DNA of 64,000 nt from the NCBI GenBank assembly GCA_038087875.1, contig CM075995.1, forward strand, positions 248,001 through 312,000. The letters are read 5' to 3'. Source of the DNA: Malacoraja senta (Eukaryota). Position numbers and translations under genes: made by a program. The notes under the pieces are model-generated. The model ran no database searches. It saw only the letters and a list, made by a program, of their open reading frames with translations, and was not told the DNA's origin. This document shows positions 9,154-46,929 of the stretch, in pieces. How positions within the stretch are numbered: the first letter of the stretch is position 1; every line of letters starts with the position of its first letter.

Positions 9154-9204
9154 CTTGTTTTCATCCTCCTCATATGCAGAGACATCTGTTCGACTATTGG
9201 ATAC
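9154..9204 (-). CDS. KIF13A: KIF13A exon (51 nt, phase 0->0): VSNSRTDVSAYEEDENK
   Basis: ttttctgcag|GTATCC...AACAAG|gtgtgt; resembles KIF13A VSSSRPDLSGFDEDDK. Confidence 0.88.
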
Positions 9205-12619: not shown

Positions 12620-14895
12620 TGGATGCTCCATAAATAGAGTCTCTCCTGTGAATGGTAAAATGCGTGGATGTTTATATTCAGGTCATCAGTCAGTTTTAAA
12701 AAACGACTTCAACTTTTCTTCTTGGGAGGAGCTCTTGAATGCACGGATGAGTTGGCCATTTTTACTTCTATTTCTCGAAGCACATTTATTCTTAATCAAC
12801 TGTTGTATTATCAAGTCTAATCTCTGGGAGAGATGGATTAATGTTCTCACTTTGAAACTATGATACATGCATTTGGAGACAGAAGAGGCTGCAGATGCTG
12901 GAATTCAAAGCAACAAACTGCCTGATGGACGAATTGTCACGTTTCAGGACCAAACCTTGCACCAGAACAGTAAATGTTTGGACTAATCCTCTTCTGTCGT
13001 TTGAAGTGAGCCACTGTATACATGGACGTCTGTCAGCTATAAAGATGGAGCATCACAAAGAACTGAGGAATTTCTCATAGACTTTAGAGATACAGCACGG
13101 AGACAGGACCTTCGCCCCACCGACCAGCGATCATCACGTTAACTTGCACTATCCGACACACACTAGGGACAATTTACAATTTTACCGAAGCCAATTAACC
13201 TACAAGCCTGTACGTCTTTGGAGTGTGGGAGGAAACGGGAGCACCCGGAGTAAGCCCAAAATGTCTCGGGGAGAACGTACAAACTCCATGCAGACAGCAC
13301 CCGTAGTCAGGATCGAACCCGGGTCTCTGGCGCTGTGAGGCAGCGACTCAACTCCTGCGCCACCGTGCCGCCCTGCTCATTCTGACTCTGGCTCTCCTAC
13401 TATGAATATACTCCTTCTGAAAAAAACACTAACTATCTGTGATTCTATACAGTGATAGAATCATTTATAAAAGTACTCAATGGGGAGTTACAGACTTCAA
13501 ATAACAATTTGGATCCACAGTCTAAATTCAGCATCCCAAATAAAAAAAATAAAAAACCATTCACCTTGCGTTTCACCAGTCGCTTATTCTGCCAACTCTT
13601 GCAATAGGTTCCTACGCACTTTTTACAGACTGGCGTTAGTTCATTATAAAGCCCAAGTAGGTACTGAATATTTAACAACATTGAAATTCCAATGAGTTAC
13701 TGTGGTGTTCATGGAAAACTCACATGGAAATCAGTTTTCTATCTTTCCTAAAGTCTGAAGAAGGGTCCCGACCCATTACGTCACCTATCCATTTTCTTCG
13801 CAGATGCTGCCTGGCCTGCTGAGTTACTCCAACATTTTGTCTGTTTTATTTGGTATAAATCAGCACCTGCAATTCCTTGTTATTGACATTCTATCTTTCG
13901 TAGCGTAATCACAAGGCCCTTGCCCACGCTTACGATTTGATCATAAGTGGTTTGCCTTCAGGAAGTTACACACAGTGTATTTCTGTCCCGAGAAGGTGCA
14001 AGTCATTTTGCAAAGCTGATAAACAGCAAGAGTGTCAATAAAGGATCATGTTTCGGCACAGATTTCTGAATGTCGGCCAACTGTTACTCAACTTCCAGTT
14101 ATATCGGGGTCCTTTGAGCGCACCACAGTATTTGTGCAAATCTTCTTTGCAGTTGTGAAAACCTTAACGGATGAGACTTCAGATCCAAGCTTATTGAATC
14201 ATATTTGCTCACACACAGTTCAATTCAACAGGAGTAAAGCCATACAGAATTACATTAGGTTGAAAATAAATACTGGGTAACTAAATTTCAGATGTACACG
14301 AATTTAGCATTTGTTAATTCCAAGTAATAAACATTGGCGGAGCAATTGCAAATAGAAAGCTGACTGAATCCTAAAGTTATCCGTACTTGGCCAGTACTGG
14401 AGCTGCAATAGTTCAACTCCAGCTCTTGATTAAATTACTTTGGTTAAGCAGATTTCTCTGGATTTCTCTCAAAGGCGAAGGCGTTTGTGGTTTGGCTGTT
14501 AAATCCTTATTTTGTAAAGTTGATACTGATGATTGATCTTCATTTGGATTCTATTTTTAAGTCAAACACAAACAAGATCTCGATTTCATATCAGATTTTA
14601 AACTTTCTGCTGGTATTTAAAAACATTGATTTTCTTTAAGCAGTCACTTTTGGCATCAAATGCGTCTAGCTCACTGATAAGGCAAGGCGATAATGTAAAT
14701 GAAGCATGCATTCATCAGGACAGAGTAACAAGAGACATCTTGGTTATCCAGGGTAACAACAGATCCATTTGTTTCAGCAGGTTGTTTTTTAAAGCAGGGT
14801 CTTGGAAGCATCGCTGCGGTCAACTGTACGACTCAACGTCCAGAGTTATTCATCGGTACTTTATATCAACAGCTTGGGACTCACCAAATATTGAA
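12620..14895 (-). pseudogene. Heavily decayed Gypsy pol remnants (protease, RNase H, integrase) collinear with the gag frame
   Basis: IFGESQAVDIK..TLDVES (14830-14891); VELLQLQYWPSTDNFR (14370-14417); FHEHH..GLYNELTPVCKKC (13600-13715); IHLSQRLDLIIQQLIK..LIRAFKSSSQEEKLK (12690-12850). Many stops and frameshifts; matched by eye only. Confidence 0.5.
13082..13373 (-). mobile_element. V-SINE (HE1-like)
   Basis: Reverse complement of the same consensus; other minus-strand copies at 1505-1740, 4640-4882, 18030-18312, 32815-33060 and 38955-39220. Confidence 0.88.
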
Positions 14896-15198: not shown

Positions 15199-15232
15199 TT
15201 TATTTATTTTAAATGATGTCCATATTTTTATT
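15199..15232 (-). promoter_or_regulatory. Candidate polyadenylation signals (AATAAA) at and just after the gag stop codon
   Basis: + strand tttatt at 15227-15232, 15203-15208 and 15199-15204. Confidence 0.5.
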
Positions 15233-16331
15233 TGTCGACATGCTCAAAGCCAGGAAACAATGCTGCCGACTTGCTCGCTCTGTAGGGCTGTTTCCGTGAC
15301 TTGCTGCCTTTAACTTTATGGCCTTCCTGTCCACAGACGTAACATGTACAGGACCTTTCACAGTTGTGTGATGGTGTCGTTTTGCCGTCCAGGTTTGTTT
15401 TGAGCTTTGCCTCGCCTTTGTCAGATCCCGATGTCTTATCTGCCGTTGGGTTGGCTTCCGGGCCGGCCGAGTCCTGCAACTTCTCCATCCTCTGAAGCCT
15501 CTCCATTTGATCCATTTGGTGTAAAGCAAGTTGCTTCACTAACGTGGTTAGCTCTAGCAGTGCAGGGTCTTGCTCAAAACTCGACCCTGCTCCAGCCAAT
15601 TCAGAAGCATCTCCCAAGCATTTTTCACCAACTTGCGCAGAAGGAACTGGATCACCCCCTTCCTGTGGCTTTCCAAACTCCTTGTCTTTGCACGGCCTCG
15701 TTTCTTGCTCCTTGAACACGACCGACTTTGGGTTACGAGCTGGAGACTTCTGATAAATATTTTTCTCATGTGCCGAAACCTGTGGCTTAACTTTCAGATC
15801 CTTATGCGCAGAGGAGCTCCGCCTCCCGGCTTTTGCTTTGAAGGACCTTAACACCGCCGCCACAGAATAGGTGGCTTTGAATTCATTTGACTGCTCAAAG
15901 CTTTGAAGGAAACCAATCGCGGGGTCCAGTGAAGGCGGTGAGGTCGCATATTCTGCTCTGAGCTTCCCAAAGGCTCCGGCTGGGCTTTGGTCCCTCAATG
16001 GCATCTCCAACACAAGCATCTTCGCTCTTCCCTCCAGGTGGTGAAGCACGGTCGCAAACCCAAGTGCAGCAGGCAGTTGGTCAGCATCCAGCGTCTGCTG
16101 CATTTCCCTGATCCAATCTTCCACGTCAATCCCACTTGCCGGGTTCCCACCGAACTTGGGCGCACTCAGTAACCGGCGGGATACACTCGAGGAGTAACAC
16201 AGAGCCAGCGGGAATGATTCGGACTGACAGGAGAGGGCAGGAGGAAGGGACAGAATGTCCATTTCTGGCGGCTTCCACTGCTCTTCAGCTAAGTGACTGC
16301 TTGACTCTCTCGACTCAGCAAGCTTCTTTCT
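15228..16331 (-). CDS. Ty3/Gypsy Gag-derived (PNMA-like) reading frame, 367 codons from splice acceptor (344 aa from first ATG at 16262); probable alternative terminal exon of KIF13A
   Basis: Capsid-like PKFGG..VEDWIREM..VLHHLEGRAK..LRAEY; degenerate MHR-like FLQSFEQSNEFKATYS; coiled coil LLELTTLVKQLALHQMDQMERLQRMEKL; knuckle CYVCGQEGHKVKGS. The frame is open 23 codons upstream of the ATG, up to the acceptor tgtctgttccgtag|AGA. Confidence 0.85.
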   Translation of the reverse strand, partial: RKKLAESRESSSHLAEEQWKPPEMDILSLPPALSCQSESFPLALCYSSSVSRRLLSAPKFGGNPASGIDVEDWIREMQQTLDADQLPAALGFATVLHHLEGRAKMLVLEMPLRDQSPAGAFGKLRAEYATSPPSLDPAIGFLQSFEQSNEFKATYSVAAVLRSFKAKAGRRSSSAHKDLKVKPQVSAHEKNIYQKSPARNPKSVVFKEQETRPCKDKEFGKPQEGGDPVPSAQVGEKCLGDASELAGAGSSFEQDPALLELTTLVKQLALHQMDQMERLQRMEKLQDSAGPEANPTADKTSGSDKGEAKLKTNLDGKTTPSHNCERSCTCYVCGQEGHKVKGSKSRKQPYRASKSAALFPGFEHVDK

Positions 16332-17935
16332 CTACGGAACAGACATGAGCAACAGAGTTCAAGCAAGTGACCATTTCCCTTTGGCTTCCAAGCCACGTTA
16401 GACAGCCTGTGCTGCAGCAGGCATTTGCAAATGCAACAAAACACTGCAGCTTGCTTCACTAAAACCATAACTAAACCTTTACCCTCCGCCCTATCTTTGA
16501 TCTAGAAAGGCCACAGTAGCACCACCTGTGTTCATGAGGGTCCCAACCTGAAACATCATCTACCTACTTTCTCCAGAGATGCTGCCTGACCCGCTGAGTT
16601 ACTCCAGCACTTTTTGTCCATCCTTGGTTTAAACTAGCATTTGCAGTTCCTTTTTATTACATTATATCTGTTCATTTGTCACTTCACCAAAGTGCCACCT
16701 ATTGCACATTTAAAATAGGTACAAAATACACAAACATAAAATGTATATTTCTCAAATATATGGACAACAGATTAATTGGCTCAATTTAACATTGGTGGTT
16801 AAAAGAAGTCATAACGTGGGGCTTGATTTTATTACAGGGAGGGCGGTGGAGGCAGGTTCTCTGGATGCTTTCAAGAGAGAGCTAGATAGGGCTCTTAAAA
16901 ATAGCAGAGTCAGGGTATATGGGAAGAAGGCAGGAACGGGGTACTGATTGGGGATGATCAGCCATGATCACATTGAATGGCGGTGCTGGCTCGAAGGGCC
17001 AAATGGCCTGCTCCTGCACCTATTGTCAATTGTCTATTACTCACTTCTTAAATACTTTTTGTGTTTACAGAGATCAGTGGATAACAAAATACATACTTTG
17101 TCTCAAACTTTGTAACACCTAATGTAACACAATGGACAGGTACATGGATAGGAAAAGTTTAGAGGGATAAATATGGGCCAAACTTGGGCAGGCGGGGACC
17201 AGCTTAGTGGAGCAACCTGGTCAGCATAGACGGGATGGGCAAAGGGGCCCGTTTCCGCGCTGAATGACTCCATGTTTAGCTCAGTTTAGTTTATTCTCAC
17301 GTGTACCGAGGTACAGTGAAAAGATTTTGTTGCGTGCTAACCAGTCAGCAGAAAGACAATACGTGATTACAATCGATCCATTTACTGTGTACATGGTAAG
17401 GGAATAACGTCGAGTGCAGGGTAAAGCCGGCAAAGTCCAAGGATAGTCCGAGGGTCACCAAAGAGGTAGACAGTAGTTCAGCACTGCTGTCCGGTTGTGG
17501 TAGGATGGTTCAGTTGCCTGATAACAGCTGGGAAGAAACTGTCCCTGAATCTGGAGGTGTGCGTTTTCACACTTCTGTACCTTTTGCCTGATGGGAGAGG
17601 GGAGAAGAGGGAGTGGCCAGGGTGTGACTCGTCCTCGATTATGTAGCTGGCATTGCTGAGGCAGCGTGAACTACAAATGACAAAGGTATAAATAAAGAAA
17701 TCTTAATTCTTTTACAGCTCTTTGCTAAAATGTTTCTAATTAGATGTGCAAGTCCTACATTCAGCAGCATGAAATGAGAGCAATCAATTCTAAAGCTGTA
17801 AGCTCACCTCCCTGTGGTTTTAATCATAATTGCACACGCAGTTATGAAAATACATTTAATACCGCAAAGAGGATAAAAAGTGCAGACGTTGGGAATCTGA
17901 AATAAAATGGAAAATGCTGCAAAAACAGCATCCTC

Positions 17936-18028
17936 ATTGCTGTCGCCACAGAATGGGAGGCTTTGTGTTCATTTGACTGCCCAAATATTTGATAGAAACC
18001 AATTGTGGGGATCAGTGAAGGATGAGGT
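17936..18028 (-). pseudogene. Diverged partial second copy of the gag frame (PSLIPTIGFYQIFGQSNEHKASHSVATAMR)
   Basis: Aligns by eye with 15852-15945 (PSLDPAIGFLQSFEQSNEFKATYSVAAVLR) at roughly 80% nt identity; truncated by an adjacent SINE. Confidence 0.8.
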
Positions 18029-24507: not shown

Positions 24508-24585
24508 ATGGTGAACGTTGGGCGTGCTGACGCTCCTCTTCATGTGCTTCCCTTTGGATGAAAGTGCTTCTTTCACAGTAACAGC
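24508..24585 (-). CDS. KIF13A: KIF13A exon (78 nt, phase 0->0): AVTVKEALSSKGKHMKRSVSTPNVHH
   Basis: ctgtattag|GCTGTT...CACCAT|gtacgt. Confidence 0.94.
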
Positions 24586-28132: not shown

Positions 28133-28285
28133 CTGTCGGAGCCGTTCCAAACTCAGGATATTTTCCACCTCCAACACTCCTCTTGTATACTTCTCAATGT
28201 AGCTTTCTCCATCCCCTGCACCGTCATTTTCATTCTTGGCTGCCATGAGAGCCAAGGTCTCTCGATCTTCCGTCTCCTCCGAGGC
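28133..28285 (-). CDS. KIF13A: KIF13A exon (153 nt, phase 0->0): ASEETEDRETLALMAAKNENDGAGDGESYIEKYTRGVLEVENILSLERLRQ
   Basis: cctgcacag|GCCTCG...CGACAG|gtaaga. Confidence 0.96.
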
Positions 28286-28456
28286 CTGTGCAGGATAAAG
28301 GCAATTTGTCAGCGTGATGATAAATCTGGAGAGCAGAGCAGTCCTGAATCATGCACACGACTAAAATATTGCCGTTGCTCTTCCACAATAAGAAGTGAAA
28401 GCTTTAAGTTTAATTACTTCTATGTTTCAACAAGTACAAATTCTAACTCTCCCTGA

Positions 28457-28840
28457 CTAGGATGAGAGGGAATCTCATTGAAACATATAAGATTGTTAAG
28501 GGCTTGGACACGCTAGAGGCAGGAAACATGTTCCCGATGTTGGGTAGAGTCCAGAACCTAGGGCCACAGTTTAAGAATAAGGAGTAAGCCATTTAGAACG
28601 GAGACGGGGAAACACTTTTTCTCACAGAGAGTGGAATTCTCTGCCTCAGAGGGCGGTGGAGGCGGGTTCTCTGGATGCTTTCAAGAGAGAGCTAGATGGT
28701 GCTCTTAAAAATAGCGGAGTCAGGGGATATGGGGAGAAGGCAGGAACGGGGTACTGATTGGGGATGATCAGCCATGATCACATTGAATGGCGGAAGTGCT
28801 GGCTAGAAGGGCCGAATGGCCAACTCCTGCACCTATTGTC
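28457..28840 (+). mobile_element. CR1 LINE 3' end, subfamily A
   Basis: Near-identical to 21520-21885 with small indels. Confidence 0.88.
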
Positions 28841-29804
28841 TGTTGGCTAGAGTAGATGGGGCATGTTGGTCGGCATGGGCAAGTCGGGCCGAAGGGCTTG
28901 TTTCCGTGCTGCATGAGTCTATGATCAAGAACTCCAAAGGTGGACAGGTTTGTAGGTTAATTGGCTTCGGTAAAGATTGTAAATTGTCCCTAGTGCATGG
29001 GATAGTGCTCGCCTACAGGAATCGCTGGTCGGCGTTGACCAAAGGGTATGTTTCCCCGCGCTGTATCTTTACACTAAACTAAACGGGTCGGTGATCAACT
29101 AATAACTGAGAAAATAACAGGAGGATTATATATTGGAATCATCTGCCACAGCCAGACATAAAAACAGTTTTTATCCACGAGTAGTTGCTCTACTCAACAG
29201 CCAAAAATCTGTAGCCTGCCTTTGATCTGGTATTTTGTTGGTTCACATGCCTGATCAATGGTGTTTTATCATTAATGTTTTATTATTATTAATGTTTAAT
29301 GTTTTCTGAGTCATTCGTAACTGTCACTGTATGGCATGTTGTTACTTGTGGGCGGAGCATGAAGGCAAATTCCTTGTTTGTGAATAGTTGGCCAATAAAC
29401 TTGCTTACTTACTGTACTTGACTTTTGACATTTTTAGAGCATTAATTACGGTTCAATTCACGCCTCTGAATGTTGCCGCCACAAGAGGGCAGCCAGAAAA
29501 GCTGACAGTTCGCAGGATTAAAAACTAATTTGTGGATTCCAATATTAATAAGGCTTAGCTATAAGGTCAGAGGGAGAAAGTTTAAAGATGCTGGAGGAAC
29601 TCAGTGGGTCAGCCAGCATCTCTGCAGAACGTAGAGAGGTGACGTTTCTGGTCGGGACCCTACTTCAGGTTGTTGGAAACAGGGAGGATGCTTCCAGTGG
29701 TGGGGCCGTTGAGATCCAGAGGTCACGGTTTCAGGATTTTAAACAGAGTTCAGCCCTTTAGGAAGAAATTGGTGAATCAATGGAATTCTCTGCCATGGAG
29801 GACA

Positions 29805-30155
29805 TAGAAACATAGAAACATAGAAAATAGGTGCAGGAGGAGGCCATTCGGCCCTTCAAGCCAGCACCGCCATTCATTGTTATCATGGCTGATCGTCCCC
29901 AATCAATAACCCGTGCCTGCCTTCTCCCCATATCCCTTGACGCCACTAGCCCCTAGAGCTCTATCTAACTCTCTCTTAAATCCATCCAGTGACTTGGCCT
30001 CCACTGCCCTCCGTGGCAGGGAATTCCATAAATTCACAACTCTCGGGTTAAAAAGTATTTTCTCACCTCAGTCTTAAATGACCTCCCCTTTATTCTAAGA
30101 CTGTGGCCCCTGGTTCTGGACTCGCCCAACATTGGGAACATTTTTCCTGCATCTA
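29805..30155 (-). mobile_element. CR1 LINE 3' end, related subfamily with (TTTCTATG)n tail
   Basis: Reverse complement of CR1 3' end; catagaaa repeats; similar copy at 51185-51486. Confidence 0.85.
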
Positions 30156-31363
30156 GGACAGTGGAGACAGGGCATTATATGTATTAGAGGAGGGAGATAT
30201 AATGCTAAGGGGATCGGAGATGTTGGGAGAAAGCAGGATTGTGGTCGTGGTGTGGGTTATACTGAATGTATTCAAGATAGAGTTAGATTTAGCTCTTAGG
30301 GCTAATGGAATCATGGGATATGGGGAGAAAGCAGGAACAGGGTACTGATTTTGAATGATCAGCCATGATCATATTGAATGGCGGTGCTGGCTCGAAGGGC
30401 CGAATGGCCAACCCCTGCACCTATTTTCTATGTTAACCCAAGGGGCTATATGACCTTCTAATTTCTGCTCCTACTTTCCAAGTTGCGGAGACATCCAGGT
30501 AGACAAAAGTGCTGGAGAAACTCAGCGGGTGCGGCAGCATCTATGGAGCGAAGGAAATAGGCAACGTTTCGAGCCGAAACCCTTCTTCAGACTGATGTAG
30601 GGTGGGGGGGGGGGGGGGGGCGGGAAGAAGAAAGGAAGAGGAGGAGCCAGGGGGCTGAGGGAGAGCTGAGAAGGGGAGGAGACAATAAGGGCTACCGGAA
30701 ATTGGAGAAGTCAATGTTTATGCCGCTGGGGTGCAGACTGCCCAAGCAGAATATGAGGTGCTGCTCCTCCAATTTCCGGTGGTGCTCACTCTGGCCATGG
30801 GGGAGGCCCAGGACAGAAAGGTCGGATTCGGAATGGGAGGGGGAGTTGAAGTGCTGAGCCACCGGGAGATCAGGTAGGTTATTGCGGACCGAGCATCTGC
30901 AGTTCCTTCTTAAACACGAGCCATCCAGGTTATTGGTCTGTACAACATCAATGCGAGTGTAATTGTTCTTGAAGTATCTTCCGCGCAGTGAATGTCAGAC
31001 CAACTCAAAGAGCACCAAGACAGAACACAAAGTGCTGGAGTAACTCAGCGGTTCAAGCAGCATCTCTGGAGAACATGAGCAGGTGACATTTTGGGTCGAT
31101 ACCTTCTTCAGGCTTTACGTTCAGATGACGAAGGGTCTCGACCCGAGACGTCACCCATTCCTTCTCTCCAGAGATGCTGCCTGTCCTGTTGAGTTACTCC
31201 AGCTTTTTGTGTCTATATTCGGTTTAATCCTGCATCTGCAGTTCCTTCCTACCCATTATTTTAAAAACTCTTAAACCAAACACGCGTAAATCAAGAGGGG
31301 GCGGCTGTATTGTGTTGAAGTAACTGGCTTTCATCGTTAGTTGATTGCCGGACGCAGATTTAC

Positions 31364-31456
31364 CTTGGGTATGTTGGAAACTATTTCATAGGTAACTCCA
31401 CACGAATGAAGAATGTACTTGTAGGACATTCTTCGCTTCAGACTCTGGGTAAAACT
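31364..31456 (-). CDS. KIF13A: KIF13A exon (93 nt, phase 0->0): SFTQSLKRRMSYKYILHSCGVTYEIVSNIPK
   Basis: cttttacag|AGTTTT...CCCAAG|gtaaat. Confidence 0.95.
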
Positions 31457-32419
31457 CTGTAAAAGTCATTAGAGAAAAACGTTTGAATTAAGAACTTAAT
31501 GAGATCAATTCTTCCCCTCCATGAGAAATTTAACAAGCAGTGTAAAAAGAACACAGAATAATGCTTTAAAGAACTGGCAGCACTTTAAACGCTGGCATCT
31601 CCGCCAGAGTGGATTAAATAATACCCATGGCTTTCCTTGGGCTGGCTGGGTCACTACAGCAACAAGCAAGGCAGACCAAGCTGGGTGATCACCAATTAGT
31701 GAACCCTTCAAGTCTCATAACCCACGAGCTCAAATCAGTTCGATACAATAGTGATGTAGTCATAGGAGCAGAAGTGGGCCATTCGGCCCATCGAGTCTAC
31801 TCACCATCTGACTAAAGAAATCCCTCCTCATCTCCATTTTAAAGGTGCGTCCTTTTATTCTGAGGCTGCCCTCTGGTCCTAGACTCTTCCGCTAGTGAAA
31901 ACATCCTCTCTGCATCCAGACCTTTCACAATATGGTACGTTTCAATGAGGCCCCCCCTCCCCCACACATCCTTTCTAAACTCCAGCGAGTACAGGCTCAG
32001 TGCCGTCAAATGCTCATCATACATTAACCCAATCATCCCCGGGGTCATTCCCCTAAACCTCGTCTGGACCCTCTCCAGGGCCAGCACATCCTTCCTCAGA
32101 TATGGGGCCCAAAACTGCCCACAATATTCACCAGAACGTGCCAGCCAGATACAGCACTTTTACTGCCTCGACCATTAGATTCTATATCTGGCCTTCGTTC
32201 ACAGTGGCAACTATGTGTACCAATTTTAACTAAATCTGCACTGCAGATTCTGAAAACTATTTTAACAGTACTTTCTTTCCCTGTGAATTGGAGGAAGACA
32301 AAAGGATCATTGTCATGATAATCAGCAAGGTGGACTTTTACCCCTTCCCTTATCACCCCCTGAATTTTCTACCCCACATCCATGCAATGAGAAACCAATG
32401 TGCAAGAACCTACCACTAT

Positions 32420-32780
32420 CCACGATGGCGCAAGGTTAGAGCTGCTGCCTTACAGCGCCAGAGACCCGGGTTCGATCCTGATAGCGCCAGAGACCCGGGT
32501 TCGATCCTGATAGCGCTAGGGACCCGGGTTCGATCCTGACTATGGGTGCGGTCTGTACGGAGTTCGTACGTTCTGCCCGTGACCTGCGTGGGCTTTCTCC
32601 AGGTGCTCCAGTTTCCTCCCACACTCCAAAGATATACAGGTTTGTAGGTTAATTGGCTTCGGTAAAAATAATAAATTATTCCTAGCGAGTAGGATAGTGC
32701 AGGTGTACGGTGTGATCGCTGGTCGGCGTAGACTCGGTGGGCCGAAGGGCATGTTTCTGTTTTTCTAATGTCTAGAGTGT
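32420..32780 (+). mobile_element. V-SINE with triplicated B-box segment
   Basis: agcgccagagacccgggttcgatcctga(t) x3. Confidence 0.85.
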
Positions 32781-33962
32781 AGTTGTTCAGAGTTACAGTG
32801 TGATAACAAGCCTTGCCGACCAGCGATCCCCGTTGCACAAGCTCAAACTGGACTCTCGGGACAATTTACAATTTTTTACCAAAGCCAATTAGCCTACAAA
32901 CCTGCATGTCTTTGGAGAGTGGTAGGAACCCGGCGAAAATCCACGCAGGTCACGGGGAGAACGTACAGACTCTGTACAGACAGCACCCGTAGTCAGGATC
33001 GAACCCGGGTCTCTGGCGCTGTAAGGCATCAACTCTACCACTGCGCCAACGTGCCGCCCAGACAAAAAAATGCGTCGACAAAAAGTGTCCAATGAGATCT
33101 TCAACAATGTCTCAGTGCTATACATGAACAGACATATTGTCCCAGAGGAAGCAGATTCATTTCCACCACTGGTCAATATTATACTCAATGGCATAGGTGA
33201 CATGTAATATACACGGCAGAGCTTAAATTCTAGAAAGAAGCCAGTTACTTTAAAAAAATTCTCGTATAATCAAAAGAAAATTGCCTTGAAGTAACAATGT
33301 CCATATTGTGTCATTCAGTAAGTCTTTATCCAAATTAATTTGCAAATGTCTTAACATTGCATGTCCAATGATACTGGGCCCTGCCACTCTTACATTGATA
33401 AGACTTTATCAATATGCAAGCTTCAATTCAGAAATTATTATGAATGCAGATTTGCATTTGTGATAGATACAATTCCTGGTCTCTTATGTTCCACCTTGGA
33501 TAAAACATTGATGAAGTAGGTTTGAACACTTAACATAAAAGTTAGATTTACTCAAACAAATAATAAAAACTGTAAGTTGGGACAAATACAATTGTAGACA
33601 AGAAGGGCTTTCTTCTATGGAAATTATCTTTCTATGACGAACACATCATAAATAGGTCTCAGTGGTCCGTTTGGTTCCAGTGGTTGGGCAGCGACTCTAC
33701 CGCTGCACCACCGTGCCGCCCTCTTGCTTCCCTGAAAAATATCAGGTTTTGGTTAAAGACAAAATGCTGGAGTAACTCAACGGGACAGGCAGCATCTCTG
33801 GAGAGAAGGAATGGGTGACGTTTCGGGTGACCCGAAACATCACCCGTTCCTTCTCTCCAGAGATGCTGCCTGTCCCGCTGAGTTACTCCAGCATTTTGTG
33901 TCTACCTTCGATTTAAACCAGCACCTGCAGGTTTAGGTTAACTTACACCGGCCGTTTCCTAC

Positions 33963-34139
33963 CTGCTTGTTGTAGATATTGACGGCTATACGCTTGCGCA
34001 GCACCAGCTCCACCGCTGCAGGGTGGCTGAGCTGCACCGTCACCTTCACAATCAAGTAGATGCGTTCATTCTGGCCGGTGACTTTGTTCAAATAGATCGA
34101 ATCGTGCACTGACGAATCCCAGGACGCAACAGCAGAGAT
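33963..34139 (-). CDS. KIF13A: KIF13A exon (177 nt, phase 0->0): ISAVASWDSSVHDSIYLNKVTGQNERIYLIVKVTVQLSHPAAVELVLRKRIAVNIYNKQ
   Basis: ggcttccag|ATCTCT...AAGCAG|gtagga; kinesin-3 tail WDSSVH motif (DUF3694-type region). Confidence 0.96.
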
Positions 34140-34282
34140 CTGGAAGCCAGGGGTGAAAAAAAGGAACTGGATTTTAACAGATACTTAAAGCTTCTACGTT
34201 AAAGTTACCTGTTAAAGTTACCTTTAGTTTAACATCATCACATATGCAGCCTGTAGCAAGGCCAGCAGCATAATATGTAGAC

Positions 34283-34511
34283 CAAGGGTTCCTAACCTGG
34301 GGAAAATTTATCCCCAAGGGGTAAATTTCGCCTACCCAGGGGGTAAATTTGTTGATTCTGGATTTGTACATATTTTCTCTCATTGACTGACTATGTTTGG
34401 TTCTGGTATCCGTTCATCATTAGTTGTTCATAAATAAGTGAAATAACTATTATGTTATGTCTATTAAAGTTGCCAGGGGGTAAACGGGACGAAAAAGATT
34501 GGGAACCCCTG
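34283..34511. mobile_element. hAT (Charlie-like) MITE
   Basis: TIRs caagggttcctaacct / agattgggaacccctg; 8-bp TSD atgtagac/acgtagac. Confidence 0.8.
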
Positions 34512-34861
34512 ACGTAGACTATAGACTGACTCCCCTCCACCTCCCCAAATCTTTGCACATCCCCGATCCTTTCCACTCGTCACTTTAATTTCATGTTTCA
34601 TGTATCTTGCGTTTTATGATTGTTGGCTGATCAAATTTCCCTCCTGGGATGAAGAAGTTCTATCGTATCGTATCATAATCAAGACGAGATGTCCCGAACC
34701 CGGGCACCAGGCAGGCAACACAGCCTTTGGGTCTCTCGATCCTCCTGACAGAGAATAGTGTCCAGTGCCCAGGCCATCACACAACCCAACCGTGTCTATC
34801 TGTGATTTAAACCAGCATCTGCAGTTCCTTCAGACACCCAAACCAACCTCCCTTCTATTGA

Positions 34862-35045
34862 TGTTTCAGAAGGAACTGCAGATGCTGGAAAATCGAAGGT
34901 AGACAAAAATGCTGGAGAAACTCAGCGGGTGAGGCATCATCTATGGAGCGAAGGAAATAGGCAACGTTTCGGGCCGAAACGTTGCCTATTTCCTTCGCTC
35001 CATAGATGCTGCCTCACCCGCTGAGTTTCTCCAGCATTTTTGTCT
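34862..35045. mobile_element. Inverted (fold-back) Penelope pLTR pair flanked by direct repeat acctcccttctattga
   Basis: Near-perfect palindrome 34897-35049 centred at ~34973; 16-bp direct repeat at 34846-34861 and 35046-35061. Confidence 0.8.
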
Positions 35046-35077
35046 ACCTCCCTTCTATTGACTCCATTTATACCTAA

Positions 35078-35546
35078 TGTGCCTGTCCCACTTAGGCGAT
35101 TTTTTTGGCGACTGTCATAGTCATAGCAGGTCGCCGAAAAACCTGTCGACTGGACCCCCCCCCCACGACAATGTCTACCACATTGTCTGCAACAACCTAC
35201 CTCCTAGTCGACGTCAAGCAACGGCAAGCTACCGACAACCGGCCACCTATTAGGACGTCCACCTACGACCACACCTACGTCCAAGCTATGGCAAGGTAAG
35301 ACAATTCAGTCGCCGGTACCTGTCGCCGGTTGACGTAGGTAGTCACCAATGGAATTCACTAAAGTCAGCACCGGTGACAGCACCTACGTCAGGCTACGAT
35401 CGTTGGCGTCAAATTTCCAAATCCAGCGACGACCAGTAAAAAGGTACGACTCTTTGGGCGACTGAGGAGACTATACAGACGACACCCCGGCGACCATGTG
35501 GCGACAGCCTAGTCGCCTAAAAAATTGCCTAAGTGGGACAGGGGCA
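35078..35546. mobile_element. PIF/Harbinger-type MITE (related TIR cctgtcccacttagg)
   Basis: TIRs cctgtcccacttaggcgattttt / aaaattgcctaagtgggacagg; single-TIR remnants at ~2020, 22920, 48190 and 56590. Confidence 0.75.
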
Positions 35547-36104
35547 TCACGCTGCCTCCAGCAGCATAATCAAGGACGAGTTGCACCCCATCCACTCCCT
35601 CTTCTCCCCTCTCCCATCAGGCAAAAGGTATTGAAGTGTGAAAACGCACACCTCCAGAATCAGGGAGTTTCTTCCCAGCAGTTATCAGGCCACCAAATCA
35701 TTCTACCACAACCAGAGAATAGTGCTGAACTACTATCTACCTCATTGGTGACACTTGGACTATCTATATTACTAAGTGTCATCTTGACCACTTGCTGTTT
35801 GCACTGCATATTGATTTTAGACAAAACGCTACCACGTACGGCTGTGATTTTGGCCATCTTACTCAGAGTCCCCCTCCGCTGGGCAGGACAAGAGGATTTT
35901 TCCCATCGATGAAAAATAATACTTATTAATGTTAAAAAAATGTTGAGATTCTCTCTCCTGTCAATCACGCCATGAAGGCCACGCCCCTTCTGGTGGGAGG
36001 GGGAGGGACTATAAAACCCAGAAGTGTTGAGTGCCTCAGTCAGTCTCTGCAAGATGTGAATAACAGTGAACACATGTCTACTAAACTGTGAGTGCCCTTA
36101 ATGT

Positions 36105-36715
36105 GGTTTGAAAATGGAGTTTGAAAATGCAAAAGGTGTTTTTGGTTTGAAAATGCAAAAGTGTTTGTTGCTTTGAAAATGCAAAAGTGTTGGTTGCTTT
36201 GAAAATTCTAAAGTGGTATTGTTGCTTTGAAAATGCTAAAGTGGTTGTTGGCTGCTTTGAAAATGCTAAAGTGGTTGTTGGTTGCTTTGAAAATGCAAAA
36301 GTGGTTGTTGCCTGCTTTGAAAATGCAAAAGTGGTTGTTGCCTGCTTTGAAAATGCAAAAGTGGTTGTTGCCTGCTTTGAAAATGCAAAAGTGGTTATTG
36401 CCTGCTTTGAAAATGCAAAAGTGGTTGTTGCCTGCTTTGAAAATGTAAAAGTGGTTGTTGCCTGCTTTGAAAATGCAAAAATGGTTGTTGCCTGCTTTGA
36501 AAATGCAAAAGTGGTTGTTGCCTGCTTTGAAAATGCAAAAGTGGTTCTTGGTTGCTTTGAAAATGCAAAAGTGTTTTTTGGTTGCTTTGAAAATGCAAAA
36601 GTGGTTGTTGGTTGCTTTGAAAATGCAAAAGTGGTTGTTGGTTGCTTTGAAAATGCAAAAGTGGTTGTTGGTTGCTTTGAAAATGCAAAAGTGGTTTTTA
36701 GTTGCTTTGAAAAAT
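36105..36715. repeat. 30-bp minisatellite (tttgaaaatgcaaaagtggttgttgcctgc)n, about 20 copies
   Basis: Directly visible tandem array. Confidence 0.97.
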
Positions 36716-37909
36716 AAATTCAGGCAGGTGGGACTAAATTAGATGGGGCATGTTGGTCGGCATGGGCAAGTTGGGCCAAAGGGCTTGTTTCACGCTGTTT
36801 AATTCTGTGACTCTGTGACTCAAGTCTTTTTGCTGACAGGATAGCATGCAACAAAAAACGTCACTGTACCTCGGCACATGACAATAATAAACTACATTAA
36901 ACTGAACCAAAGATGACGTTTCGTGTCGGGACTCTTCTTCAGACTATTGATCAGACTTCTTCAGATATAGCTACTTTTAAAGTTTAGAATTCCATGCACC
37001 AGAGGTTTTCTTCTCCCACTCACTTCTTCTTTACTTTTCATTTTAAATGCACTGAGGGGGCGGCACAGTGGTGCAGCGATAGAGTTGCTACCTTATAGCG
37101 CCGTTGACCCAGTTTCGATCCTGACCACGGACCCGTTGTCTTTACGGAGTTTGTACGCTCTCCCCGTGACCTGCGTGAGTTTTCTCCGGGTGCTCCGGTT
37201 TCCTCCCACACTTGTACAGCGTTGAAAGTTATTTGGCTTCGGTAAGAAATTGTAAATTGTCCCTAGTGTGTGTGTAGGATAGTGTTAGTGTATGGGGATT
37301 GCTGGTCGACGCAGACTCGGTGGGCTGTTTCCGCGCTGTATCGCTAAACTAAACTAAACTGAACCAAAGGTGATATGTTCAAGAAGGAACTGCAGATGCT
37401 GGAAAATCGAAGGTAGACAAAAGTGCTGGAGAAACTCAGTGGGTGCGGCAGCATCTATGGAGCGAAGGAAATAGGCAACGTTTCGGGCCGAAACCCTTCT
37501 TTCGGGTCGAGACCCTTCTTCAGGCTATTGATCAGACTTCTTCAGATATGGCTTCTTTTTTAATTTAAAATTCCTTACACCAGAGGTTTTCTACCCCATT
37601 CACTTCTTCTATACTTGTCATTTTAAATGCCCTGCCAGATAAATTTCTGTTATTCATCCCATTCCTTGCCACACAGCAGCACAGTAAATATTTCAGACTT
37701 TTTTTCGTGTGTAAGCAAACCACGATTTATGTTGCAAGCTACTTAAGAGCAGGACAACCAGACACTCAATAATGAAGTGGATTCAGCAAATGGTTCTTCA
37801 ATTATGAATGTCTGTCTCTGTAGTCTGGCACTCCCAGCGCTGAGTGACGCTCACAGAGACTGTGAAAAAGGTTTGATAAAAAGGAGTGGAAAGAGATGCA
37901 TGACAAAAA

Positions 37910-38815
37910 ACAATGTGTTTGATGAGCGTTTGTCAGCACTGGGCCTGTACTCGCTGGAGTTCAGAAGAATGAGGGGGGACCTCATTGAAACTTCTTGCTA
38001 TTGAGGGAGTGCAGCGTAGGTTTACAAGGTTAATTCCCGGGATGGCGGGACTGTCATATGCTGAGAGAATGGAGCAGCTGGGCTTGTACACTCTGGAGTT
38101 TAGAAGGATGAGAGGGCATCTCATTGAAACATATAAGATTGTTTAGGGTTTGGACACGCTGGAGGCAGGAAACATGTTCCCGTTGTTGGGGGAGTCCAGA
38201 ACCAGGGGCCACAGATTAAGAATAAGGAGTAAGCCATTTAGAACGGAGACGAGGAAACACTTTTTCTCACAGAGAGTGGTGAGTCTGTGAAATTCTCTGC
38301 CGCAGAGGGCGGTGGAGGCCGGTTCTCTGGATGCTTTCAAGAAAGAGCTGGAAAGGGCTCTTAAAAATAGCAGAGTCAGGGGATATGGGGAGAAGGCAGG
38401 AACGGGGTACTGATTGGGGATGATCAGCCATGATCACATTGAATGGTGATGCTGGCTCGAAGGGCCGAATTGCCTACTCCTGCACCTATTGTCTAATGTC
38501 TATTGTCTAACTTACCGAATCGTAAAAGGCTTGAATAGAGGGAATGTGGAGAGGATGTTTCCACTAGTGGGAGAGTCTAGGACTAGAGGCCATAGCCTCA
38601 GAATTAAAGGACGTTCCTTTAGAAAGGAGATGAGGAGGAATTTCTTTAGTCAGAGGGTGGTGAATCTGTGGAATTCTTTGCCACAGAAGGCTGTGGATGC
38701 CAAGTCAATGGATATTTTAAGGCGGAGAATGGTGTGATTAGTGCGGGTGTCAAGGTGTTATGGGGAGAAGGCAGGAGAATGGGGTTTAGAGAGAAAGATA
38801 GATCAGCCATGATCT
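37910..38815 (+). mobile_element. CR1 subfamily A (37995-38508) nested in a CR1 subfamily B copy
   Basis: Host CR1-B sequence breaks at ctcattgaaactt (~37993) and resumes at aacttaccgaat (~38509). Confidence 0.85.
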
Positions 38816-39641
38816 TTGAACATATATGCAGAATGAAATTCTCCCACCAAGTCTATATTCACATGATTTCTCAAATAACCACTAAAAATACTTAATTACC
38901 AACACCCTAACATAGAAATTTATTTCAAACAAGTTTTTTTTTTCCAGTTTTGTGGTTTAGAGATACAGCGCAGAAACAGCCCCTTCGGCCCACCAGGTCC
39001 GCACTGACCAGCGATTCCCGCACATTAACACTCTCCTACACACACTAGGGACAATTGTAAATTCATACCAAGCCAATTAACATGCAAACCTGCACGTCTA
39101 TTAAGTGTGGGAGGAAACCGGAGATCCCGGCCACGGGGAGAACGTACGGACAAGCACCCGTAGTCGGGATCGAACCCGGGTCGCTGGCACTGTGAGGCAG
39201 TAGCTCCACCACTAGGCCACCGGTATTTAAAATAAAAATGGTAACTGCATCCATCAGGGCAAGGGATGCTTGTGTTTGTGAAATGGAGTATCCCCCCCAT
39301 CTCGGCACTTAGCGGTAACTTCAAGCACATAATCTCCGGAGAAAAATGCCCTGTCAAGTGACCCTCTGGTATGTGTGGCATTTTAAATGAGTTCTCTTGT
39401 TTCCCTGTGGACTAAATGTCAGAGTGCAGCCAGCTCCAGCCTGCCGGAGTCAGCTCATTAAACCAGGATTACTGTCGAAGCGCGGTATCATCTCGCTGGA
39501 GGCGAGGTCCTCGAATAACATGCACTGAGTGCCAACTCCAATCAATTTATGCCGTGGAGCCACTTCTCCTCCCCTGACAGACTGCTGACTGTAAAGCAAG
39601 TTCGACGACACAGAGAGGAATGTGAACCCATGCAGTCAAAT

Positions 39642-39868
39642 AATTAGTGAAAATATCACGTTAAGTCTACTTCTGAAAATTGAGATTTGCACTTGGAAAA
39701 TTGAGATTTCTGAAAATCTTAATTTCCAAGAGCAAATCTCAATTTTCAGAAGGAGACTTAACTTGATATTTTAACTAATCTCCAATGCAGCAAATCTCAA
39801 TTTTCAGAAAATTCAGATCGCTGAAATTCTTCTCAATTTTCTGAAAATTTAGATTTGCTGCATTGGAG
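39642..39868. repeat. Two adjacent imperfect palindromes sharing the motif gcaaatctcaattttcagaa
   Basis: Hairpin 1 ~39642-39779; hairpin 2 ~39780-39868. Confidence 0.8.
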
Positions 39869-40003
39869 GTTACTTCTTGGTTGAACAAGACCTTGGATCT
39901 CTAATAAGGCGTTTCATTCCCCAGAGCTTAATTTCTACCTTTGCCTGTGCTACAACCCCAACTTTCCTCCGATTTTAAACTTTCTCGCTCATTCTAAACT
40001 TTT

Positions 40004-40360
40004 ATTTTTTTTATTTTTTTATTTTTTATTTATTAGAAGTACATTACATTACAACCACATACATTAGTACTCGTCACTTATGTCTTCTTACAATTAATGT
40101 ACTCCATTTGTTTTTTACACTAGTAAAAGGAAAAGATAAGATTGAAAGAAAGAAGAAAGTGAAGGAAAAAGTGAGAGTGTAGAAAATGTGACAACAAAAA
40201 AGGACGAAGACCCTATAAGAACAAAATTAAAAACAAAAGAAAAAGAGTTAAGAAATAGACCCTAGAAAAGAAGGAGAAAGAGAAAGAGGAAAAAGAGAGA
40301 AACAAATATTTTTTATGAGCATTACGCAAATGGGACATACCAACTCTTCAACTATCAACT
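40004..40360 (-). mobile_element. 5'-truncated poly(A) retroposon (L1-like 3'UTR) with 13-bp TSD
   Basis: attctaaactttt at 39991-40003 and 40361-40373; A-rich tail with AATAAA on minus strand. Confidence 0.75.
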
Positions 40361-40809
40361 ATTCTAAACTTTTCATCCATCCATTTTTGCTAAATTCTGT
40401 CTGGTAGCCACAAACGGACACAAACTCAGCATCAACTGGAGAGCACTCCTGAACTACTACCTACCTCATCGTAGACACTCAGACTATCTTTGATCAGATT
40501 TTACCTGCTTTATCTTGCACTAAATGTTATTCACGTTATTCCCTTTATCATGTATCAGTACACTGCAAATGGATCGAATGTAATCATGTAATGTCTTTCC
40601 GCTGACTGCTCAGCACGCAACAATAGCTTTCCACTGTTCCTCGGTACACGTGACAATCAACTAAACGCAAACTCATATCTGTAGAACATGGATAGCTTGG
40701 TTTATTTTAGTTTATTGTCACGCGTGCGGAGGTACAGTGAAAAGCTTTTTGTTGAGTGCTAGTCAGTCGGCGGAAAGACAATACATGATTACATTCGATC
40801 CATTTGCAT

Positions 40810-41765
40810 GTGGAGGAGGAGCCATCTTGGGGAACGGCTGCTAATCAGCAGCCGTCCGTTTAATTCACTCTTTTTTTTTGTAGTTCTAGTGAGTCCTGTG
40901 TTTTGTTTGTGGGAGAAATCGACTTTTTAATGTAGGGCGAAGGAGGTAACTATATTTCTAGGTCCCTACCTGGTCGGTGAGGCAGCTTTTTCTCCGGGCT
41001 GCCCCGTCGACCCGTCCACGTGGCCTACCAGCGGGGGTGGAGCGCCGTTTCCTGGCGGGGACCGCCCAGCACCTCGGCTTCGGTGGCGGCACAGCGCTGG
41101 AGCACTATCGCGGAGCGGAGCGGGCGATGCCTTGCCTGGGTCGCCGCGCTGGATCGACGCGCTGGTGCTCCGGTGAGCTGTGACCGCCGAGTTCAACACC
41201 TCCGGGCTGTGGGTCTGCGGAGAGGAGCGGGCGGCGCCGACTTCAACATCGGGAGCCTGGGGGCTCCAAACCGGCGCGGCCTTGACGGCTTCGGAAGCCG
41301 CGGTCTCCGGTAAGGAATGCGGCCGTTCCAGGTGGCCCAGCCGCTGAGAGGACTCTCCCGACGCCGGGGAAACAGCGTCCGTAGAGGCAATAGCGGAGGC
41401 CTCAATAGGCCTGACTTTGGGAGAACTGGGGTTGGGGACTGGACATTGTGCCTTCCCCCACAGTGGTAACCATTGTGGGGGGATGATTTTTGTGTGTAAG
41501 TGACTATTTTAGTCTGTGTCCAAGATGGCTGTCGGAAGGGAGAGTGGACGCTGGCGCGGTTTAGCTGCCGCTGCTCTCTCTTCACATTGTGTTTCTGATT
41601 TTTTTTTGTCTTTGGATCGAATTCTGTCTTTAATTTGTGTATTGGTGATGTCTTTATAATTCATTTTACTCCGGTTATATGTTTTTTACTTGTTAAATTC
41701 TGTAAGGTGTCCTTGAGACTCTTGAAAGGTGCCCATAAATAAAATTTATTATTATTATTATTACT
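40810..41765 (+). mobile_element. Unclassified GC-rich non-autonomous retroposon with AATAAA and (ATT)n tail
   Basis: CpG-rich body; similar architecture at 54650-55545; related fragments at 5290-5770, 18570-18790, 27020-27255 and 49470-49840. Confidence 0.55.
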
Positions 41766-42949
41766 ATATATGAGGATAGGTGACCTTTCGGGTCGGGGAC
41801 CCTTCTTCAGACTGCTCTCGTATCAAGCAAGTTTAGTTTTAGAGATAATGTGCTTTGGGGTGGACTGCGGTGCAGCTGGTAGATCTGCTGCTTCACAGCA
41901 CCAGAGACCCAGGTTCGATCCTGACCTTGGTTGCTGTCTGTGTGGAGTTTGCATGTTTTCCCCGTCCATGTACCTGTCCAACTGTCTCCTGAACAAAATG
42001 ATAGTCCCTGCCTCAACTTCCTCCTCTGGTCGCTCGTTCCATACACCCACCACCCTTTGTGTGAAAAAGTTACCCCTCAGATTCCTATCCAATCTTTCCC
42101 CCTCACTTTAAACTCGGTTCCCCTACTCTGGGCAAGACTCTGTGCGTCTACCCAATTTATTCCTCTCACGATCTTGTACACCTCTATAAGATCACCCCCT
42201 CATCCTCCTGAGCTCCAAGGAATAGAGTCACAACCTGCTCACCCTCTCCCTGTAGCTCAGGCCCTCGAGTCCTGGCAAAAATGGGCGGTTACTGTGGCGC
42301 AGCGGTAGATTTGCTGCCTTACAGCGAATGAGGCGCCATAGACCCGGGTTCGATTCCGACTACGGGTGCTGTCTGTACGGAGTTTGTACGTTCTCACCGT
42401 GACCAGCGTGGGTTTTCGCTGAGATCTTTGGTTTCCTCCCACATTCCAAAGACGTACGGGTTTGTAGGTTAATTGGCTTGGTAAATGTAAAAATTGTCCC
42501 TAGTGGGTTTAGGATAGTGTTAATGAGCGGGGATCGCTGGGCGGCGAGGACCCGGTGGGCCGAAGGGCCTGTTTCCGCTCTGTATCGCTAAACTAAACAA
42601 AAATATCCTCGTAAATCTTCTCTGCACCCTTTCCAGCTTGACAACGTCACATGTGGATGTGCTTCAGCCGGCTAGAGTGCAGCAGCATATAAAAACAGCA
42701 AAGAGTGTTGCTGCAACTGTTGACGTCCATATCTGGAGTGCTTGCCTGCAGCCTGGGTCTTTTTTTTTAAGGAGGGAGACCCTTTGGGGGAAAGTTTGCT
42801 GGGCTGATTCCAGAGATGAAAGAGTTGTCCTACACTGCAAGGTTGAGCAGGCTGGACATTTACTCATTGAAGTTTACGGAAATGAGATAACAAGTGAAAG
42901 GCCTGGATAGAGTGGAAGTGGAGAGGATGTTTCCTCCATTGATAAGAGG

Positions 42950-43545
42950 ATGGAGGCTGTCTGTATTTATTGAGGAGGTCTGCTCTTTCAACGTCTGCAG
43001 TGAGATGCTGCAGATGTTCTACCAATCGGTGGTAGCCAGTGCCATCTTCTTCGCTGCCGTGCGCTGGGGCAGCAGGGCGAAGGCCGCGGACGCCAACAGG
43101 ATCAACAAACTCATCAGGAAGGCTGGGTCTGTCCTGGGGGCGGAGTTGGATTCACGGGAGGTGGTCTTGGAGGGGAGGATGCTCGGTCTTGGAGGGGAGG
43201 ATGCTCCTCAAACTGCGGAGCATCCTGGACAATACAGTTCACCCCCTCCATGACACACTGGTCAACCTGAGGAGCACCTTCAGCAACAGACTGGTTCCAC
43301 CAAGATGCAGCACAGAACGCCACAGGAGATAGTTTTTCCCTGTGGCTATCAAACCAAATAACTCCTCCCCCTTCTGTCGTGGGGAGGACTGACTCCCATT
43401 CCCCTTCCCCTCCCCACCCTAATCTTTGCACATCCCCAATCCTTTCCACTCATCACTTTAATTTCATGTTTCATGTATCTTGTGTTTTATGACTGTTGGC
43501 AGATCAATTCCTCTCCTGGGATAAATAAAGTTCTATCGTATTGTA
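42950..43545 (+). mobile_element. Second Rex1/Babar-like LINE 3' end, inserted into a CR1 fragment
   Basis: MLQMFYQSVVASAIFFAAVRWG..NKLIRKAGSV..HPLH; (TCGTA)-type tail; CR1 resumes at ~43546. Confidence 0.78.
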
Positions 43546-44024
43546 TGAGTCTAGGACCAGAGGGCAGATCCTCAGAATTAAAGGATGTACCTTTAGAAAG
43601 GAAATGAGGAGACATTTCTTTAGTCAGAGGGTGATGATTCTGGGAATGTACTGCTACACACAGCTGTGGAGGCCGTCAATGGATATTTTTAAGCAGAGAT
43701 TGACATATTCTTGATTAGTGTCAGGTATCAGGGGTTAATGGGGAGAAGGCAGGAGAATGGGGTTGAGAGGGAAAGATAGATCAGCCATGATTGAATGGCA
43801 GAGTAAACATGATGGGCCGAATGGCCTAATTTTGCTCCAAAAACCTATAAACTTAGAAAGAGTTGTGTTACATTAACAGGTTGAGCAGGTTGGACATTTA
43901 CTCATTGAAGTTTAGGAAAATGAGAGATTATGTTATTTAATGTAAGTGGAATACAGACTGTGTTTTATCAATAGCCCAAAGCTGCTCCTCACTATGTAAA
44001 CACAGTGCTGGAGTATCTCACCAG

Positions 44025-45536: not shown

Positions 45537-45594
<58 letters not shown>

Positions 45595-46500: not shown

Positions 46501-46929
46501 AAAGATACTAGGTGCGGGGTGAGGAAGGGTCGGAGCGAATGACGGGTCCCGAACAGCGGCAGCAGCGGCCGCGCACAGCGGCTCCATCTCCTCCTGCTCC
46601 CGGCCCCCCCCCCCCCCGCCCGCCCTGTTAAGGGCCTCTGCTTGCAAACCCGCTAACGCCAATAACCGCTTTCAAAACAAACCCTCCAGCACTCCGAGGC
46701 CTCCCCCTCCCTCCCTCCTCCCGGCCTCGGAGTGCAGTGGGTTTCTGATCAATCCAATGGCAACAAAAATATCCAGTCCAGAAAAAAAAGAGAAAGATAG
46801 AGTGAATAATCTAAGATTGGAGAGTTCAATATCGGGTCATGCAGACTGCAATGTGCTCAGACAAGAGTTGAGGTGCTGTTCCTCAGCATGACATTAGGCC
46901 TCTTTGTAAGAGTGCAGGAAGCCAGAAGG

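Follow-up and report, generated by a model that had tools for sequence, protein, structure and literature searches.

Gag-derived open frame at the KIF13A locus of Malacoraja senta: a probable alternative last exon of cartilaginous-fish KIF13A

Introduction

When an open gag frame survives in a genome, is it a gene in its own right beside the remains of its element, or has it become part of a host gene? The question is raised by a 64,000-nucleotide stretch of Malacoraja senta DNA, hereafter the window, to which this analysis is devoted. A sequence-only reading of this stretch had proposed an indel-free 1.1-kb gag, followed on the same strand by faint echoes of a fossil pol (protease, RNase H and integrase) that, if real, would imply selection on gag alone. 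The analysis points to a different arrangement, in which the gag frame is very probably spliced in frame to the kinesin gene KIF13A as an alternative last exon. All positions are those of the window, and the features are collected in Table 1.

KIF13A Locus and Splice Junction

KIF13A exons span the window on the minus strand, and the Callorhinchus protein maps to eight exons between 61294 and 24508, after which its match continues in the gag frame. Both sides of the predicted junction are in phase 0, with TPNVHH followed by the GT donor and the acceptor AG followed by RKKLAE. In particular, one contig of run X11, from a related species (organism F; depth 7.6), ends its match to the gag exon at 16331 and continues for 30 letters, 29 of which match 24508-24537, thus joining the gag exon and the TPNVHH exon at the exact predicted base. 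This is one strong hint, from a species other than that of the window, and not a transcript count: the junction is carried by a single contig whose short side of 30 letters is one below the 31-letter bridging rule, and a retrocopy is possible as the run is labelled 'DNA?'. Four runs were aligned to 15134-16536, with X23 covering 15704-15866 only; contigs of X3 and X5 extend past the gag exon into the intron, and X11 has an intronic contig too. Behind the stop codon of the gag exon lies a candidate polyadenylation signal, past which one X11 contig continues.

The same junction, TPNVHH joined to (R/K)KKLAE and the gag tail, is present in annotated KIF13A proteins of Callorhinchus milii (A0A4W3IBK6), Pristiophorus japonicus (isoforms X1 and X2), Mustelus asterias (XP_078098030.1) and Chiloscyllium plagiosum (XP_043575067.1). 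In the annotation of these four genera the fused form passes as an ordinary isoform of KIF13A, and the protein models are already public under the plain name KIF13A. Residues 1-20 of the gag exon, which lie ahead of its first methionine, are invariant at 9 of 20 positions, while the internal methionine itself (residue 24) is not conserved. A free-standing gag starting at Met24 was considered and rejected on the grounds that this residue is not conserved and that the spliced junction is seen. Taken as a free gene by the sequence-only reading, which missed KIF13A, the open gag frame is thus assigned with high confidence to the end of the host gene.

The ordinary continuation of KIF13A would lie further along the minus strand. 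A candidate next exon, alternative to the gag exon, presumably belongs to the gene by its likeness to the human KIF13A tail (Table 1). Two further candidate tail exons were observed, one at 768-655, open between AG and GT, and one at about 2860-3008, where a trial boundary of 3008-2859 is not open in phase 0. Since the exon near 3008 needs another phase, an unlocated KIF13A exon is possible between 9154 and 3008. In the same intron as the gag exon there is a second copy of a piece of it, which scores 12.8 bits with the element-gag profile and is possibly a remnant of a local duplication.

Other features of the window include an array at 36120-36713 in which a 30-nt unit recurs 20 times (92% matches), within a KIF13A intron and open in several frames, and a 29-nt unit present in 8.7 copies (96% matches) at 3466-3717, by eye a tandem-amplified piece of the common LINE-like 3' repeat. 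A 34-nt inverted repeat (79%, with 90 nt between its arms) lies at 18499-18656 at a G+C-rich insert, which resembles, by eye, a second one at about 5400-5660.

Table 1. Positions of the KIF13A, gag-tail and putative pol features within the window; all are on the minus strand
Feature	Position	Strand	Evidence or remark
Gag-derived alternative last exon of KIF13A (very probable), 367 codons and stop, phase 0	15228..16331	-	Open frame; best distant match is the C-terminus of Callorhinchus KIF13A; junction contig
Splice acceptor, pyrimidine tract and AG (AG at 16333-16332)	16332..16360	-	X11 contig breaks at 16331 and resumes with the upstream exon
KIF13A exon ending in TPNVHH, GT donor, phase 0, spliced to gag exon	24508..24585	-	Loose end of X11 contig
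Seven further KIF13A exons	28133..61294	-	tblastn, 82-95% identity to Callorhinchus, 90-97% to Pristiophorus
Coordinates of these seven exons	61294-61196, 59840-59712, ~56808-56754, ~51072-50944, 34139-33963, ~31456-31361, 28285-28133	-	Some ends approximate
Candidate ordinary next KIF13A exon, alternative to gag exon	9154..9204	-	AG..GT, 51 nt, phase 0, open; presumed assignment
AATAAA, candidate polyadenylation signal	15203..15208	-	20 nt behind the gag-exon stop
Second copy (78 nt) of a gag-exon piece	17944..18021	-	83% identical to 15858-15935; same intron, 2.1 kb upstream of gag exon
Capsid N-terminal lobe, residues 49-131	15939..16187	-	pLDDT ~76-97 over residues 51-130
Conserved post-capsid helix, residues 254-286, predicted self-associating coiled coil	15474..15572	-	
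Zinc knuckle, degenerate here (C-x2-C-x4-H-x4-S)	15303..15344	-	Full CCHC in the four named species
Claimed pol remnant	12620..14895	-	Sequence of intron or 3' UTR; Pol signal at chance level
Protease-like strings IFGESQAVDIK and TLDVES	14891-14859 and 14846-14829	-	
RNase H-like string VELLQLQYWPSTDNFR	14417-14370	-	
Integrase HHCC-like strings FHEHH and GLYNELTPVCKKC	13716-13702 and 13654-13616	-	
Integrase-core-like strings IHLSQRLDLIIQQLIK and LIRAFKSSSQEEKLK	12838-12791 and 12751-12707	-	

The Claimed Pol Remnant

The seven strings on which the pol claim had been built all lie on the minus strand and in the order described, but their likeness to Pol is not above chance. A Pfam search in six frames, with stops read as X, returned a Pol family in 0 of 6 frames. 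When the intact P0083 Pol, from the nearest Gypsy family, was used as the tblastn query with two matrices, the best 25 matches per matrix included none below E 12 in 12560-15227, while the 25 best domains of an HMM of 107 Pols (the L001 Pol and those shorter than 1700 residues among 120 listed) included none inside 12620-14895. Used in a frameshift-aware search, the check that the sequence-only reading itself had named, the profile of these Pols scored 18.9 bits as against 19.5±2.0 for shuffled sequence (82 of 150 shuffles as high), and real 2-kb tiles of the window gave 19.7±1.7, with 42 of 64 scoring as high. For the best segments per domain, 16 to 87 of 100 shuffles did as well or better, and ordered chains with free long jumps were equalled by 33 to 49 of 100; the region taken unmasked gave a null result as well. 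The best RNase H motif segment does coincide with VELLQLQYWPSTDNFR, but its 12.9 bits fall below the null mean of 13.5. The spacing of the integrase strings, measured by hand, is about 161 codons from HHCC to the core motif versus 85 in the element, and 29 versus 45 between the two core motifs. Finally, blastn of L001, an element of the nearest gag family, against the window gave three matches, all with E 0.43 and none in the pol region. As a positive control, a profile of 18 element gags, with the KIF13A tails left out, reached 158 bits on the gag exon.

Detection power in these searches was 78-92% at 26-27% identity and 19-28% at 19-20%, so that a remnant below about 20% would usually be missed and very old pol DNA is unsupported rather than excluded. 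At this sensitivity, no Pol similarity was found above the shuffled background, the outcome that the sequence-only reading had itself named as refuting its claim; the fossil protease, RNase H and integrase lose their support, and the strings cannot show that the element was inserted in place. The stretch is also interrupted by three repeats (13079-13374, 13744-13896 and 14901-15133), present in 14-30 copies in the window, which we take to be SINEs. No flanking LTR pair was found: the direct repeats in 9000-20000 are multi-copy repeats of the dispersed kind, one short pair in tandem, or the 78-nt copy of the gag piece. More generally, the negative result on pol shows that chance is enough to produce ordered 'motif echoes' in intron DNA.

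Homologues and Age of the Capture

A phmmer search with the gag frame gave 51 matches, of which the top one is an orthologue (P0002, 91% identical) and the next residues 1365-1706 of the 1708-residue Callorhinchus milii KIF13A. The other matches checked (21 were scanned) proved to be gags of Gypsy type carrying traces of PNMA, Retrotrans_gag or CCHC. A search for longer proteins found three among 7999 candidates and added the Pristiophorus and Mustelus KIF13A isoforms, and the clusters of those proteins gave the second Pristiophorus isoform and Chiloscyllium; a fused form outside cartilaginous fish was found in none of these 7999 candidates, which is weak evidence of absence. At near-gag length, a word-based homologue search returned one protein among 5872 candidates, and a search of viral contigs confirmed 0 of 15 stretches.

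The likely donor family is represented by fish Gypsy elements of the P0004-P0015 / L001 type, which are 28-37% identical over capsid and helix (E down to 1e-25) and share with the gag tail the order of lobe, helix and knuckle. In these elements, which occur in many copies, gag is followed by an intact pol (1437 residues in L001), whereas the KIF13A gag has no pol signal or LTR pair and is spliced to a host exon. L001 is an element of this nearest gag family, 2 loci being confirmed of 595 stretches. At 386-6636 of its contig it is an intact-looking Gypsy whose 658-codon gag, with a long proline-rich N-terminus, overlaps the 1437-codon pol in another frame; no LTR pair is present within its contig.

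A tree was built from 29 rows, i.e., six KIF13A tails and 23 element gags, the shorter or weaker matches and the mammalian PNMAs being left out. The six tails form one side of a branch (100/100) opposite the 23 element gags, and the stem between them is long (1.15). Within the tails, the chimaera falls outside the group of five elasmobranch rows (100/99), in which Mustelus and Chiloscyllium form a pair (98/97). The tree thereby places the window among the elasmobranchs, probably with the skates or rays. The window and P0002 group weakly with the sawshark (91/75) instead of outside all sharks, a grouping that is not trusted, and the root is a midpoint only. As the tails form one clade, a single capture before chimaeras and sharks separated appears likely from the aligned sequences. 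The chimaera-shark split is about 400-420 million years (My) old, and the gag exon has likely been retained for some 400 million years. The features by which Wang and Han 2021 recognise a co-opted gag (capsid homology, the same locus in at least two families or a tree in agreement with the hosts, and selection) are all found in the gag exon; with regard to the locus, the same KIF13A junction is present in the four named genera and the window, with the chimaera outermost and one weak node in disagreement.

Selection on the Gag Tail

The gag exon is under purifying selection, with an omega of 0.35-0.48 (kappa 1-4; p 0.003-0.03) for one species pair, an estimate based on 40 of 105 differences, 33 of which are in codons 114-367 (18 replacement and 15 silent). 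All three coding indels keep the frame, two being of 3 nt and one a one-residue gap in P0002. The 205-nt 5' flank carries at least four indel events (13, 1 and 1 nt, and a cluster summing to 12 nt) and the 94-nt 3' flank none, so that the difference in indel density between exon and flank has a p of 0.007 with the 5' flank alone and of about 0.02, by hand, with the 3' flank counted. The stop codon is TAA in the window and TAG in X11, and both the length of the tail and the position of its stop are conserved to within a few residues. Thus, of the 1.1-kb indel-free gag, the open frame of 367 codons in the window stands, but relatives carry in-frame indels. Similarly, the view that the gag is old and selected is borne out by the shared junction, the frame-keeping indels and an omega below 1, without help from a decayed pol beside it.

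Constraint along the tail is uneven. Indeed, the positions invariant in five species amount to 18 of 33 in the helix (residues 254-286), 28 of 81 in the N-lobe, 19 of 80 in the C-lobe and 5-8% in the linkers, and the helix is identical to that of two sharks at 29 of 30 positions. Overall, the tails are 47-75% identical and the motor bodies 93-97%, i.e., the tail diverges much faster.

Structure of the Gag Tail

The tail was modelled from a 47-row alignment with a mean pLDDT of 65, the model being confident at residues 51-130 and about 251-290 and weak at the second lobe, which appears as two helices followed by disorder (pLDDT ~49-74). The N-lobe aligns with the PNMA2 capsid with a Z of 9.7 (rmsd 2.6 over 78 aligned residues), with Copia at 9.0 and with dArc1 at 8.7; Foldseek alone gave no match at E<=0.001, its top rows being nonetheless capsids. 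A sequence search of the PDB with the gag tail mostly matched zinc knuckles. Pfam PNMA had no match on the gag protein of the window (P0001) and sub-threshold matches on some element gags.

The helix that follows the capsid part is predicted from modelling to self-associate as a coiled coil. In particular, a three-copy model scored 0.65 versus 0.02 for the best control, with at least 86% of contacts agreeing between runs and a pLDDT of at least 77, and its core is formed by L258, L261, V265, L268, Q272, Q275, L279 and M282. In the calibration, 21 of 30 solved pairs from microbes and 17 of 29 from eukaryotes passed the mark used, as opposed to 0 of 23 and 0 of 30 single chains, respectively. 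The model, with three copies of the helix alone, lies outside this two-copy calibration, amphipathic helices may pass from model memory, and the full-length motor is beyond its reach. Further along the tail, the fourth cysteine of the zinc knuckle is a serine in the window and in P0002, and in X11 the histidine is changed as well. The branch to the window and P0002 is long (0.58), which together with the loss of the knuckle suggests a change of role.

Origin, Role and Rival Explanations

These results favour, with a probability of roughly 60%, the capture of a gag from a Gypsy-type retrotransposon on a single occasion, likely before the chimaera/shark split, and its likely use as a replacement tail capable of self-clustering. 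The insertion, of a Gypsy element or its gag, would have been in sense orientation and in a KIF13A intron, where an AG ahead of the capsid part may have been recruited as the acceptor, and pol would then have been lost or have decayed past detection; neither a Pol nor an LTR trace backs insertion in place. The resulting isoform is predicted to retain the motor, FHA and stalk and to drop the ordinary distal tail, which normally binds cargo. In its place, the capsid N-lobe would likely offer a protein-binding surface for other cargo, the coiled coil would hold two or three motors together, and in sharks the zinc knuckle may bind RNA. Given the fusion, the clustering role itself, which follows from modelling, has about even odds, and a closed capsid shell made by the tail is less likely.

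Other roles for the same tail would make use of the Gag residues in different ways. The tail might bind or co-assemble with the Gag of related Gypsy elements, and the motor would then act as a dominant-negative restriction factor by pulling their particles away from the nucleus. Such a role would fit an N-lobe that is close to those of element gags (31-42 of 81 positions identical to the four shown), a self-associating helix common to them (9-15 of 27-30), the fast divergence of the tail relative to the motor body, the endogenised Gag restriction factor Drt2 among the fold matches, and the precedent of Fv1, named in PMC8321522. It is nonetheless unlikely, given that the one species pair compared has an omega below 1 (a whole-region estimate), that the stem to element gags is so long, and that the 51 matches, most of which carry no organism label, include no close intact donor element from cartilaginous fish. 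We give still less credence to Arc/PNMA2-like particles, in which the tail, fused or cleaved, would form RNA-holding shells carried by their own motor. Here the best fold matches to the PNMA2, Copia and dArc1 capsids, the CCHC knuckle intact in four species and the invariant C-lobe positions are set against a poorly ordered second lobe that shares only 14-19 of 80 positions with element gags, a knuckle decayed in the window's lineage, and the lack of an encoded protease, while an N-terminal load of 1300 residues would presumably hinder closure. Taken together, a retrotransposon-capsid kinesin tail that hauls retroelement particles along microtubules or assembles RNA-carrying particles of its own is a doubtful reading; if true, it would predate every other vertebrate Gag domestication known to these searches and be the first to involve fusion to a motor.

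Two further explanations give the Gag residues either little importance or a gene of their own. The exon may chiefly truncate KIF13A to yield a regulatory or dominant-negative isoform, which would account for the low invariance of the linkers, the loss of the knuckle here and an omega that is only moderately low. Truncation, however, has no need for a 370-codon open frame over such a time, nor for the near-identity of the helix with that of sharks and the conserved length and stop position, and we regard it as improbable to much the same degree as the particles. Least probable is that gag became a free-standing domesticated gene next to a decayed but recognisable pol from the same element: the strings in Gypsy order, a best RNase H segment falling on one of them, the low power under about 20% identity and the presence of an internal methionine would suit it, but all the Pol tests are at null level, the spacings are off, the methionine varies between species and a spliced junction has been observed.

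Relation to Known Gag-Derived Genes

The PNMA family (PNMA2) and Arc/dArc have the same metavirus-type capsid lobe as the KIF13A tail and are likewise host genes under purifying selection; the nearest Atlas cluster to the gag tail is PNMA/zinc knuckle (0.92). According to PMC8321522, PNMA and Arc/dArc are free-standing genes of mammals, tetrapods or flies, whereas here a spliced kinesin last exon of cartilaginous fish is concerned, without a Pfam PNMA match and with a poorly ordered second lobe. Also comparable are the SCAN domain, Crtg10-KELP and Crtg14-PEX14 (Wang and Han 2021, PMC8321522), in which a Gag-derived domain is joined to host domains. In the case of KIF13A the partner is a microtubule motor, the lineage is another one, the fusion is an alternative to an ordinary tail, and nearly the whole capsid-helix-knuckle part is retained. 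Exons derived from L1 ORF1p (Kitao et al. 2025, PMC12129022) are likewise ancient retroelement coding sequence spliced in as a lineage-specific isoform, the donor being LINE-1 ORF1p there and the Gag of an LTR element here. With vertebrate KIF13A the fusion shares motor, FHA and stalk, the exons being 82-97% identical to chimaera and shark. The five human KIF13A isoforms, as described in the accessible part of PMC9081326, differ by deletions or short end changes, and a Gag-like end is described there for none.

The survey of PMC8321522 counts, in its accessible text, 14 deep gag co-options, none in fish, with Callorhinchus and Rhincodon in its species table, and the terms 'kif13' and 'kinesin' do not occur in the part of its supplement available to us. 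Neither KIF13 nor sharks are mentioned in the main text, as accessible, of PMC12129022 and PMC10516033, the former lacking 'kinesin' too. No report of a KIF13A-gag fusion was found in the open literature, subscription papers not being covered. Host-Gag fusion by exon capture is thus of a known kind, and its partner and lineage in this case were not found in print.

Conclusions

Collectively, these data add a Gag co-option in cartilaginous fish, a lineage for which the accessible text of the PMC8321522 survey has none. That survey dates Arc and SCAN to ~352 My, which is younger than the chimaera-shark split. As the exon is hidden inside models named as KIF13A isoforms, a fusion made by splicing can escape screens that look for free-standing gag genes. 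According to PMC9081326, KIF13A monomers are inactive and the motor is otherwise a weak dimer, with Rab22A promoting dimers and AP-1 binding the tail. The exon permits a direct test of a capsid lobe and coiled coil on a motor whose activity depends on dimerisation. Since KIF13A is otherwise a weak dimer in need of Rab22A, the gag tail would make the motor more stably assembled, with other cargo.
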